Shown: in pieces, positions 24,123 to 26,419 of the stretch
How positions within the stretch are numbered: position 1 is the first letter of the stretch
Layout of the letters: each line of letters starts with the position of its first letter
DNA from: an uncultured Clostridium sp.
GTDB lineage: Bacteria > Bacillota > Clostridia > Ch29
Assembly (NCBI GenBank): GCA_964529035.1
Contig: CAZGUG010000003.1
Location: forward strand, 1-56,307
DNA length: 56,307 bases
Direction: 5' to 3'
Position numbers and translations under genes: made by a program
The notes under the pieces: model-generated
Databases searched by the model: none
The model's input: only the letters and a program-made list of their open reading frames with translations
Told to the model about the DNA's origin: nothing

Positions 24123-25078
24123 TTAGCGGCCCCCTTCCATTCCAGCATGTCGATGAAAGCTTCCAGCCTTGTATCTATCCCCGCTTCGCCGGTATGCTCA
24201 TCTATTGTAAGCAGGCAAAAAGGAATTTTCTTTTTTCGTATTCTGCGCTCCACCAGGTCGCCTACCAGTGCATCCAGCCCGCAGCCAAAGGCCACAAGAT
24301 AAATTATCCCCCTTGCATGCCTTTCTTCAATAAGATACTGGGATGCCGCCATAATCTTTTTGCCAAAGCTCCAAAACATGGGTTTTGTAAAGTCCCGGGC
24401 TATCCTGTCCAATTCGCCGGCACACACCATGTCCTGGGTCAGTACCTTTATCCTTCTGTTCCTTAGCTTGTCTATTATCCCCATACTCACATAGTTGTCG
24501 TAAATATTATAGGGATGTCCTATAAGTCCTACTGTATAGCAATAATCATCCTCGGTACAAATTTCTCTATTCATGGCTTCAAGGGGCGTAGCTCCCTTTT
24601 CCATTAAACCTTCATAACATTTCAGCCGGGCCACAGAACTTCTGAACGCCCTGTAAATCTTACCGTAATCGCGGGTGAAATGCCGGCCCACCTGAAGCAC
24701 TGCGTTTCTCAATGAAGAGTAACCGTTCCTTAAGTTTATGGTACAGTCTATCACCGGCGGCAGCCCTTTGACAGAGTTCAGCACCATATCCGGCAGGCCG
24801 CAGAATTTAGGGCATATATATTCATTTTTTTCAACGCTTATCAACCTGGGTATGAAAAGAAAGTCCACCCTGTCCCTCAAATCAACTATATGTCCATGGA
24901 ACACCTTCATGGGCAGACATGCGTCATCCACACAGCAGTTAACACCATCGTCCAGTATTTTCTTGTTTGTCAGGTTTGACAATACCACGCTGGCTCCCAG
25001 TTCTTCGAAAAAAGTATTCCACATGGGAAAATAGTTATAGTAAAGCAGCGCCCTGGGTATACCCACCTTTACTTTCAT
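24116..25078 (-). CDS. 2-hydroxyacyl-CoA dehydratase-related / DUF2229-type subunit
   Basis: VGIPRALLYY, ACLPMKVFHGH, YICPKFCGLPD, GHPYN, FGCGLD and DEHTGEAGIDTRLEAF motifs. Confidence 0.75.
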   Translation of the reverse strand: MKVKVGIPRALLYYNYFPMWNTFFEELGASVVLSNLTNKKILDDGVNCCVDDACLPMKVFHGHIVDLRDRVDFLFIPRLISVEKNEYICPKFCGLPDMVLNSVKGLPPVIDCTINLRNGYSSLRNAVLQVGRHFTRDYGKIYRAFRSSVARLKCYEGLMEKGATPLEAMNREICTEDDYCYTVGLIGHPYNIYDNYVSMGIIDKLRNRRIKVLTQDMVCAGELDRIARDFTKPMFWSFGKKIMAASQYLIEERHARGIIYLVAFGCGLDALVGDLVERRIRKKKIPFCLLTIDEHTGEAGIDTRLEAFIDMLEWKGAAKC

Positions 25079-25123
25079 TACACCATTCCTTTCACAGCTG
25101 TCTCAATAGTAACGTTCAGCAAT

Positions 25124-25153
25124 TATTTTTGCCATACTGAACCCTTTCTAAAC
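25124..25153 (-). promoter_or_regulatory. sigmaF-type promoter for the three-gene activase operon
   Basis: GTTTA-15 nt-GGCAAAAATA matches GYWTA-N15-GGnnAnAnTW. Confidence 0.55.
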
Positions 25154-25232
25154 AGCAATAAACAGGTCTGGTAAACTTACATTTAATTTTACTATGTACA
25201 TTTTGACAATAATAATATATACTACTAGAAAA

Positions 25233-25338
25233 GCCCTTATTTTTATGAAGTCCTGATTATATATTCCTTCTCGCTGCCTGTTGTCACCCGGAAAGTAATC
25301 GGAACCCTTCAAAGATAATGGGCAAAGCCAAGAGGAGG
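25233..25338 (+). promoter_or_regulatory. Structured 5' leader (long hairpin plus anti-SD) of the zinc-ribbon gene
   Basis: GCCCTTATTTTTATGAAG pairs with CTTCAAAGATAATGGGC; TCCTGATTAT pairs with GTAATCGGA; internal CCTTCTC is complementary to RBS GAGGAGG. Confidence 0.55.
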
Positions 25339-25345
25339 TTTTTTT

Positions 25346-25630
25346 ATGTATCAGGATAAGACTTTGAATTGTAAGGAATGCGGAAGAGATTTTGTTTTTT
25401 CTGCTTCTGAACAGGAATTTTATGCCGAAAAGGGATTCGAAAACGAGCCGGCCAGATGCCCGGAATGCCGCACCGCCAGAAAGGCCTTTCGCAGAGGAGG
25501 ACGCGGTACTAAACGGATGTACGAGGCGGTATGCGCAGAATGCGGTCAGACTGCCCATGTGCCCTTTAAACCCACCGATGACAGGCCGGTGTATTGTAAA
25601 GACTGCTATTCAAAAAGAAACGGTTATTGA
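25346..25630 (+). CDS. Zinc-ribbon protein (zf-trcl plus CxxC-x17-CxxC domain)
   Basis: CKEC...EQEFYAEKGF..EP.RCPECR and AVCAECG...VPFKP...RPVYCKDCY. Confidence 0.9.
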   Translation: MYQDKTLNCKECGRDFVFSASEQEFYAEKGFENEPARCPECRTARKAFRRGGRGTKRMYEAVCAECGQTAHVPFKPTDDRPVYCKDCYSKRNGY

Positions 25631-25639
25631 TTTCAGTTA

Positions 25640-25662
25640 AAAACCCGTCCTGCGGGTTTTTT
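25640..25662 (+). terminator. Intrinsic terminator after the zinc-ribbon gene
   Basis: AAAACCCG-TCCTG-CGGGTTTT followed by TT. Confidence 0.75.
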
Positions 25663-25741
25663 ATATTATTTGACTGCTTATTTTAATTTCGTAACGGAAT
25701 TATATAATTTAGTGCAGTAATACTGTCAGGAGCTGTTTGCT

Positions 25742-26419
25742 ATGAATAAACTAATTAAAGCTCTGGGTACAAGTAGGCTTTTTGTAGGATACGATGAAAC
25801 GGAAATCTCGGACATGCTGCTTCATACCCGTTACAAATCGGCTTCCTATTCAAAGAACCGGATAATTGCACTGGAAGGGGACCGTGCTTCAAGCGTGGGT
25901 ATTGTGCTGGAAGGGGCTGTAGAAATTCAGAAAACCTACCCCTCAGGCAGAAGTATTACCATCAGCCGCCTGTTCAAGGGGGACATATTCGGAGAGGCAA
26001 TTATTTTCTCCAGTTCAAAGTGCTATCCGGCCACCATAATATCAGTGGACTTCTCCAGAGTATTCTTTCTGTCGGAGGCGGATATTCTGAGGCTTTGCAG
26101 TACAAGCTCCCTGTTTCTCAACAATTTCATGAAAATACTATCCAATAAAATACTTATGCTTAACGAGAGACTGAAACACCTATCCTATCAGACCATAAGG
26201 GAAAAAATATCCAGTTATCTCACCGAGGAATACAAATTACAGGGAAGCAGGAAAATAGAAGTCCCCATCACCAGAAGTAAAATGGCTGAGCAGTTCGGAA
26301 TCGCAAGACCCTCGCTGTCCCGGGAACTTATTTCAATGAAAAAGGACGGGCTAATAGATTTTGACAAAAGCAGCATTACCATAAAGGACCTTAAATCCCT
26401 GGAGGATATACTGTTCTGA
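25742..26419 (+). CDS. Crp/Fnr-family transcriptional regulator (HcpR-like)
   Basis: cNMP-binding-like domain (GDIFGEA, YPAT) and C-terminal HTH (TIREKI...ARPSLSREL). Confidence 0.88.
   Translation: MNKLIKALGTSRLFVGYDETEISDMLLHTRYKSASYSKNRIIALEGDRASSVGIVLEGAVEIQKTYPSGRSITISRLFKGDIFGEAIIFSSSKCYPATIISVDFSRVFFLSEADILRLCSTSSLFLNNFMKILSNKILMLNERLKHLSYQTIREKISSYLTEEYKLQGSRKIEVPITRSKMAEQFGIARPSLSRELISMKKDGLIDFDKSSITIKDLKSLEDILF

Follow-up and report, generated by a model that had tools for sequence, protein, structure and literature searches.

The leader of a small zinc-ribbon gene in an uncultured Clostridium sp. can adopt two mutually exclusive RNA folds, one leaving the Shine-Dalgarno (SD) sequence free and one hiding it, and comparison with relatives shows that both folds are conserved and that the leader is tied exclusively to genes of the zf_Tbcl family. 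We consider it very probable that the leader is a two-state, SD-controlling cis element of some kind; its effect on translation is inferred, as we have no experimental data.

The window (the whole stretch of DNA that was analyzed, 56,307 nucleotides) carries this leader in an intergenic region (25079-25345) bounded on one side by a minus-strand, divergent DUF2229/HGD-D/BcrAD_BadFG operon and on the other by the regulated gene (25346-25630, plus strand, with its ATG at 25346). The gene encodes 94 amino acids comprising a zf_Tbcl domain (PF13451) and a zf_Tbcl_2 domain (PF23477; TIGR04272, CxxC-x17-CxxC) with an Arg/Gly-rich linker between them, and an intrinsic terminator found by terminator scan (25639-25670, plus strand) closes a one-gene transcription unit. 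A promoter scan predicted a sigma-A-type promoter on the plus strand at 25195-25223, consisting of TGTACA (25195-25200), a 17-nt spacer and TATACT (25218-25223), from which we infer a transcript start at about 25230-25232, 1 to 3 nt ahead of the stem described below; the start has not been mapped. The promoter block TATGTACAT..ATATATACT is kept across the window's family (f1). Three further elements lie in the region. A perfect TTGACA (25203-25208) sits between the predicted -35 and -10 boxes without a properly spaced -10 of its own, and the palindrome ATGTACAT (25194-25201), which overlaps the predicted -35 and is kept in the family, is a possible operator. The block CAGCAATTATTTTTGCCATAC..TTTTCTAAACA (about 25118-25155), kept in 9 of the 10 other family members, lies upstream of the divergent operon, where its minus-strand reading is GTTTAGAAA..GGCAAAAATAAT.

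The RNAfold minimum-energy fold of 25225-25350 is a nested hairpin spanning 25233-25323 (-29.9 kcal/mol), which we call state A; all of its parts are on the plus strand. It is closed by helix P1, in which strand S1 (GCCCTTATTTT, RNA GCCCUUAUUUU; 25233-25243) pairs with strand S3 (AAAGATAATGGGC, RNA AAAGAUAAUGGGC; 25311-25323). Inside P1 come P1b, formed by TGAAG (UGAAG; 25246-25250) and CTTCA (CUUCA; 25307-25311), and P2, formed by TCCTGATTAT (RNA UCCUGAUUAU; 25251-25260) and GTAATCGGA (RNA GUAAUCGGA; 25295-25303), both of which are state A helices particular to the window's lineage. The pyrimidine tract UUCCUUCUC (25264-25272) contains the anti-SD CCUUCUC (25266-25272), and its TTCC (UUCC, 25264-25267) pairs with GGAA (25290-25293) in the SD-like purine tract GGAAAG (25290-25295), the counterpart by homology of GGGAAG in distant members. 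The apical loop holds the switching strand S2 (25273-25285), made up of GCU (25273-25275) and GCCUGUUGUC (25276-25285), and the SD, GAGGAGG (25332-25338), is left free. Because its z score against dinucleotide shuffles is only -1.47, with 18 of 200 shuffles folding equally well, the hairpin fold taken alone is not beyond chance; what raises it above chance is conservation and covariation among relatives, not single-sequence folding energy.

The second fold, state B, emerged from an RNAalifold consensus of 18 leaders, which was not the long hairpin but the pairing of anti-SD with SD, together with a pairing of the loop segment UGCCUGUUAUC with the outer stem's 3' strand, GAUAAUGGGCA. In the window, state B consists of three helices: GCCUGUUGUC (25276-25285) with GAUAAUGGGC (25314-25323), a 10-bp S2:S3 helix; GCU (25273-25275) with AGC (25326-25328); and CCUUCUC (25266-25272) with GAGGAGG (25332-25338). 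These 20 bp, four of them G·U, amount to -21.9 kcal/mol for the listed pairs, and they leave S1 unpaired. State A has two G·U pairs; as such pairs occur in both folds, the pairing is specific to the plus strand. Since S1 and S2 are both complementary to S3, the two folds exclude each other, the SD being free in A and hidden in B. The original prediction had described the hairpin at 25233-25323, the CCTTCTC anti-SD, the GAGGAGG SD and the TGTACA-17-TATACT promoter, and all of these strings and positions held, as did the nested fold, which is exactly the RNAfold minimum-energy structure. The transcript start that it placed about 3 nt ahead of the stem is plausible, though supported by prediction only. 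The two-state translational switch that it proposed through the anti-SD is supported and strengthened by the comparative evidence, without expression data, although the SD-hiding fold is larger than had been seen, reaching 20 bp and competing for the 3' strand of the hairpin; the 10-nt loop complement of that outer-stem strand had been missed.

Constrained folding of the window leader gave -29.9 kcal/mol for A and -23.2 kcal/mol for B, so that A is favored by about 5 to 7 kcal/mol and the switch here may rarely flip without a factor. Across the 18 leaders the difference dG(B)-dG(A) ranged from -5.5 to +7.2 kcal/mol, and the minimum-energy folds of single leaders divide between A and B.

Among 61 related genomes, 43 carry an orthologous zinc-ribbon gene. 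The promoter and leader are kept in 9 of the 10 other species of the window's family, while sequence farther upstream is not; the tenth species (L012) has a divergent leader of the canonical type. Additional leaders were taken from assemblies encoding close homologues, including one (L176) whose protein is 63% identical and whose neighbors differ (a divergent HSP20 gene), with the leader retained. The interior of the hairpin varies among these relatives: in L176 the P2 pairing GAUUA/UAAUC is swapped for AACU/AGUU, and P1b (UGAAG/CUUCA) is missing from the L005/L006/L169 clade. Compensatory changes in S2:S3 were found in L009 and L168 (GCCCAUGAAA/UUUCGUGGGC), in L164 (UAGCCC/GGGCUA) and in L176 (UUGUCUAU-GAUU/AAUCAUGGGCAA), and further compensatory variants occur in L232 and L281. 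When 16 close relatives were aligned with plain MAFFT, with no fitting to either fold, 87.3% of cells were paired for A and 93.0% for B, compared with at most 54% in slid controls.

The leader is present in a single copy in the 2.03-Mb assembly, and on this ground a repeated or mobile inverted repeat (REP/MITE) was rejected. A leader-peptide attenuator or upstream open reading frame was likewise rejected, as the candidate ATG AAG TCC TGA (25245-25256) is missing or altered in relatives. A metagenome search with the pattern AAGTCCNGATTAT..TAATCNG was too loose to be informative, with true leaders making up 2 of the 120 stretches returned. At one locus (L185; G010:C8:35682-35971), in an assembly that is 71% complete, the zf_Tbcl gene behind an intact leader seems frameshifted, possibly through sequencing error or because it is a pseudogene.

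Leaders of a wider form are carried by orthologues in Peptococcaceae, Desulfitobacteriaceae, Dehalobacter, Desulfosporosinus and Syntrophomonadaceae. This distant form reads GCUCG..UGUGGAU..ACCUUCUCGAUUGCCU..GGGAAG..CUUCCC..GCGGGUAAUAA..GGAGGU, and consensus sigma-A promoters (TTGACA-17-TATACT/TATAAT) lie 6 to 9 nt ahead of its S1 (GCUCG). We built a covariance model (R3) from 15 leaders of distant Bacillota only (Desulfitobacteriia, Peptococcaceae and Syntrophomonadaceae), with none from the window's lineage. R3 nevertheless matched the window at 25231-25348 (plus strand) over its full length (model positions 1-112; 31.3 bits, E 2.1e-5), the match reaching as far as the zf_Tbcl start codon (ATG), and we take this interval as the whole leader motif, a divergent member of a "zf_Tbcl leader" family. 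The window has S1, the anti-SD, S2, the SD-like purine tract, S3 and the SD, with S3 able to pair with either S1 or S2. The model also found all leaders of the window's family except L162, with L008 found only weakly (E 0.46), and it scored 45.6 bits against L176. A lineage-specific model (R2) gave 140 bits against the window leader; in the window's own class its true matches were confined to the window's own family, and those outside it (L190-L194) were rejected as generic hairpin-plus-SD arrangements ahead of unrelated genes.

In another Bacillota phylum, that of one distant leader-carrying organism, R3 matched 32 of 301 genomes at E≤1e-4, individual genomes carrying as many as five copies. 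The genes that follow the motif are two-domain zf_Tbcl genes, starting at its 3' end at 29 of the 30 loci fetched and at all 16 extra copies in multi-copy genomes; thus 45 of the 46 copies examined adjoin a zf_Tbcl gene, and the motif never precedes a transporter or an enzyme. Four genomes of this Desulfitobacteriia-type phylum (G408, G694, G402 and G641; L305-L311, L313, L314, L318 and L319) contain three to five paralogous zf_Tbcl genes, each with its own leader, which indicates that leader and gene duplicate as a unit. In a Syntrophomonas metagenome-assembled genome, the zf leader is preceded at about 150 nt by a NiCo riboswitch on the opposite strand (RF02683, 72.8 bits; L232 243-332, minus strand). 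Rfam 15 returned only chance-level matches, far below gathering thresholds, for 24900-25800 of the window at E≤10, and no match on leaders of distant family members, in keeping with the original statement that no named RNA family could be assigned; nor did we find a description of the leader family in the literature searched. The leader belongs to an apparently undescribed and widespread RNA family.

Conservation and covariation in orthologous leaders had been proposed as the check on the switch, and both are present in the relatives' leaders, in the alignments as in the R3 search. We tested covariation on the R3 alignment (A5), which has 52 rows (50 distinct; two are antisense artefacts) and was fitted to fold B; the shuffles used as controls ignore phylogeny. 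For the state B helices (anti-SD:SD, S2:S3, GGC:GUC and GGGAAG:CUUCCC), 83.3% of cells were paired, compared with at most 62.8% when strands were slid, and changes on both sides were seen in 16 of the 23 pairs. Double-change cells numbered 101, against 45 in shuffled alignments, a count reached by none of 500 phylogeny-ignoring shuffles. The state A helices, which are absent from R3 (P1 GCUCG:CGGGY, anti-SD CUUCUC:GGGAAG and GCC:GGC), gave 80.3% paired cells against at most 57.6% slid, and 33 double-change cells against 16.3 shuffled, again reached by 0 of 500 shuffles that disregard phylogeny. Within P1, column pair 7-143 is GC in 23 rows, AU in 7 and UA in 4, and column pair 5-145 is UG in 33, CG in 12 and UA in 3. 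Comparison thus shows, with the caveat that the shuffles do not account for phylogeny, that both folds are conserved with compensatory changes and that every strand has two conserved partners. The anti-SD:SD helix is uninformative in this respect, because both of its strands are constrained by the ribosome and cannot covary informatively. No stretch of the leader is more conserved than the anti-SD, whose CCUUCU hardly varies among 48 distinct family members. All positions with at least 90% conservation belong to the switch strands, within the alternative helices, while the two junctions of about 25 nt are poorly conserved. A candidate pairing of GGAU in the 5' junction with AAUCU before the SD was dropped, as it holds in some members only.

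The balance between the folds differs across the family. In distant members B is 0 to 13 kcal/mol more stable than A, and for most members of the leader family the stable fold is B, not A. In the window's lineage P1 has been lengthened to 12 bp and P1b and P2 have been added, and A is therefore equal to or more stable than B there. These comparisons bear on the possibility that the hairpin is a static 5'-terminal stabilizer against 5' exonuclease, its complementarity to the SD being incidental. Stems at the 5' end are known to stabilize Firmicutes mRNAs, as in the ermC and aprE leaders. Here the stem starts at 25233, about 1 to 3 nt from the predicted (unmapped) start at 25230-25232, and the window's minimum-energy fold is A by the margin given above. 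Against this, S2:S3 and the other B helices are maintained by compensatory changes, B is the stable fold in most members, and the anti-SD is more conserved than any other stretch. We therefore regard a purely static role as unlikely.

Transcription attenuation, with the state B stem ending in GAGGAGG and followed by U7 (25339-25345) as a terminator before the start codon, is less likely still. Termination is the mode of most Firmicute riboswitches, and a U-rich run does follow the SD in the window's lineage. However, the terminator scan found none in the leader (25195-25345), the roughly 60 nt enclosed by the stem set it apart from compact terminators, and in distant members the U run is either paired to an A run located upstream (column pair 44-176) or missing (GGAGGUCAUUUAAUG). 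We consider this explanation very improbable.

Folding of the growing chain was then considered alongside the equilibrium energies. In these predictions the A modules form first and A is the best fold until S3 emerges; in a distant member, B wins only after the SD has been transcribed. The same two-state leader might thus respond to temperature or time without any protein or ligand, with A persisting in the cold or in young mRNA and relaxing to B when the cell is warm or the message has aged. In favor of such a reading, growing-chain folds give A before B, and distant members form A first even where B is the more stable by up to 13 kcal/mol. In the window, moreover, the predicted dG(B)-dG(A) drops from +6.8 kcal/mol at 15 C to +0.2 kcal/mol at 65 C. 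There is also a weak neighborhood hint: of 161 loci, four (L202, L218, L246 and L294) have a gene with a cold-shock-domain motif and three (L212, L228 and L291) one with a DEAD-box helicase motif at a distance of up to about 1.5 kb from the zf gene, possibly pointing, if only faintly, to RNA metabolism or a cold response. On the other side, the temperature trend is inconsistent among relatives, being flat in L007 and L009 and running in the opposite direction in L008 and L176, and no consistent thermometer signal or sign change of the A/B balance was seen across relatives between 15 and 65 C in predicted folds. The 20-bp state B is far more stable than known RNA thermometers, and the neighborhood hint comes from loci that are partly redundant. 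A response to temperature or time remains a lesser possibility. An RNA thermometer of the ROSE or fourU kind was rejected, as the SD lies in a 20-bp helix rather than in a short, imperfect, melting one.

In the model that we favor, the leader (about 25230-25345) would be a bistable RNA that sets the amount of protein through an exposed or hidden ribosome-binding site. State A would fold first during RNA synthesis, because all of its parts are transcribed before the SD. S1:S3 would close the long hairpin, the anti-SD would be partly held by the internal SD-like GGAA tract, and the free SD would allow translation, with the 5' end buried in the stem. In state B, S2 would take S3 from S1 and the adjacent CCUUCUC would pair with the SD, turning translation off and leaving the 5' end single-stranded. 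The zinc-ribbon protein, once abundant, may bind the leader and favor state B, giving negative feedback in the style of ribosomal-protein leaders. What triggers the switch and in which direction is inferred, as are the transcript start and the effect on translation, and we judge this autoregulatory version, in which the encoded protein provides the feedback, a shade more apt to be wrong than right.

An exclusive tie of a leader to a family of RNA-binding proteins is the pattern of autoregulated leaders, of which ribosomal-protein leaders are the familiar case. In the R2 and R3 searches the zf_Tbcl leader was found only with zf_Tbcl, the presumed regulator's own gene (45 of 46 copies examined). 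Conservation of the switch strands rather than the junctions, together with strong sigma-A promoters, fits post-transcriptional control. The alternative is a riboswitch, in which a small molecule or metal ion (zinc being the obvious guess) would stabilize P1 and state A, or else state B. A closing P1 whose 3' strand serves as the switching sequence does resemble riboswitch architecture, and archaeal CxxC-x17-CxxC relatives of the product bind zinc, with functions that are unknown (PMC12704099). Yet conservation is confined to nucleotides of the alternative helices, the junctions are variable and show no visible binding pocket, the motif precedes one gene family only and never a transporter or enzyme, and the window's lineage has heavily remodeled the interior while keeping the switch strands. 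Protein feedback fits better than a metabolite aptamer, because there is a single gene family, no conserved pocket and strong promoters, and we consider a riboswitch unlikely. Of the triggers listed in the original prediction (temperature, ligand or autoregulation), none is singled out by the data, which lean against a metabolite aptamer.

The zinc-ribbon protein itself is modeled as two beta-beta-alpha zinc knuckles (pLDDT 82.5). Neither sequence searches nor Foldseek identified a significant relative in the PDB, returning only generic zinc-finger noise; a weak Foldseek match to a ribosome entry from Methanosarcina pointed to the Sri hibernation factors, which are unrelated CBS-domain proteins, and was set aside. 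We infer from its RGG-like linker, its zinc knuckles and the structured RNAs next to its genes that the protein probably binds RNA, although there are no binding data.

Two other structured RNAs occur beside zf_Tbcl genes. The raiA motif RNA (RF03072) lies on the same strand and ends 35 to 110 nt upstream of a zf_Tbcl orthologue in 11 of 40 scanned loci, and by sequence signature it is found upstream of zf_Tbcl in about 21 of 110 loci (among them L011, L013, L025, L175, L199, L206, L207, L210, L211, L215, L223, L227, L236, L240 and L241). At L011 (1189-2877) the raiA RNA is followed by the zf_Tbcl gene and then by the hpf/raiA gene. According to the published study of the raiA RNA (PMC10861870), no protein is known as a candidate partner; the study mentions no zf_Tbcl neighbor either. 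A tRNA-like element stands directly upstream of the zf_Tbcl gene in at least 18 of 110 loci (L014, L017, L018, L022, L024, L026, L030, L209, L230, L231, L237, L245, L248, L250, L263, L266 and L268 among them), about 60 to 130 nt before it, and the gene ahead of the element usually carries a sigma-70 region-4 motif. The element combines a T-arm (GGTTCAAATCC) with a D-arm-like TAGCTTA..AGAGC and is closed by a GCCC/GGGY stem, and it scores 33 to 34 bits with the Rfam tRNA model in L018 and L230. ARAGORN found no tRNA in 18 scanned loci (L018 included, L230 not), apart from a genuine tRNA-Gly in L030. The closing stem and the A-rich spacer that follows it resemble P1 of the leader family. Sorting of leader types by regular expression undercounts the leader family, and model searches are to be preferred.

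A bolder reading, which we offer only as a possibility, is that zf_Tbcl/CxxC-x17-CxxC proteins bind RNA and that their genes are invariably coupled to a structured RNA, which by lineage may be a bistable leader, a raiA motif RNA or a tRNA-like element. It is conceivable, too, that the protein is the missing partner of the raiA RNA or of the ribosome-hibernation locus (raiA RNA - zf_Tbcl - hpf). Were this reading true, the leader would mimic the RNA target of the protein and so bring about feedback control.

Several known systems resemble the zf_Tbcl leader in part. Autoregulatory leaders of ribosomal and RNA-binding proteins (L20, S15, L10 and the thrS operator) likewise combine a structured 5' leader, association with one gene family, access to the SD governed by alternative or stabilized structure, and a strong constitutive promoter. 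In contrast to them, binding of the zinc-ribbon protein to its leader has not been shown, no target mimicry is known and no Rfam leader matches; the zf_Tbcl leader also conserves both conformers explicitly, each strand having two partners. Among translational riboswitch expression platforms, the Vibrio vulnificus add adenine riboswitch, which has three states, similarly shares a strand of its closing P1 with an alternative helix, exposes or hides the SD by its fold and has a co-transcriptional folding window. Unlike add, the zf_Tbcl leader has no visible ligand pocket, serves one protein family only, and keeps the alternative partner of its switching strand inside the element rather than downstream. 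The Escherichia coli cspA mRNA thermosensor also has a long 5' leader whose first-formed fold is translatable, but it has no sequence or structural homology to the zf_Tbcl leader, the predicted temperature dependence of which is inconsistent. The raiA motif RNA is, like the leader, found directly upstream and on the same strand of zinc-ribbon orthologues, in other Clostridia. It differs in being larger (about 205 nt) and in having no similarity to the leader, and it is reported to be an abundant non-coding RNA, not a cis-regulator (PMC10861870).

Taken together, the comparisons point to a cis-regulatory RNA family of Bacillota that is new and rather widespread, present in roughly a tenth of the genomes searched in one phylum and in a family of Clostridia. 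Visibility of both conformers by covariation is rare. Because the window's lineage rebuilt the interior of the element and kept its switch strands, the leader family offers a clean model for the evolution of bistable leaders. It also provides a handle on an abundant, uncharacterized family of small zinc-ribbon proteins, and as the gene adjoins the raiA RNA and hpf in other Clostridia, its product is a testable candidate for the protein partner of the raiA RNA.
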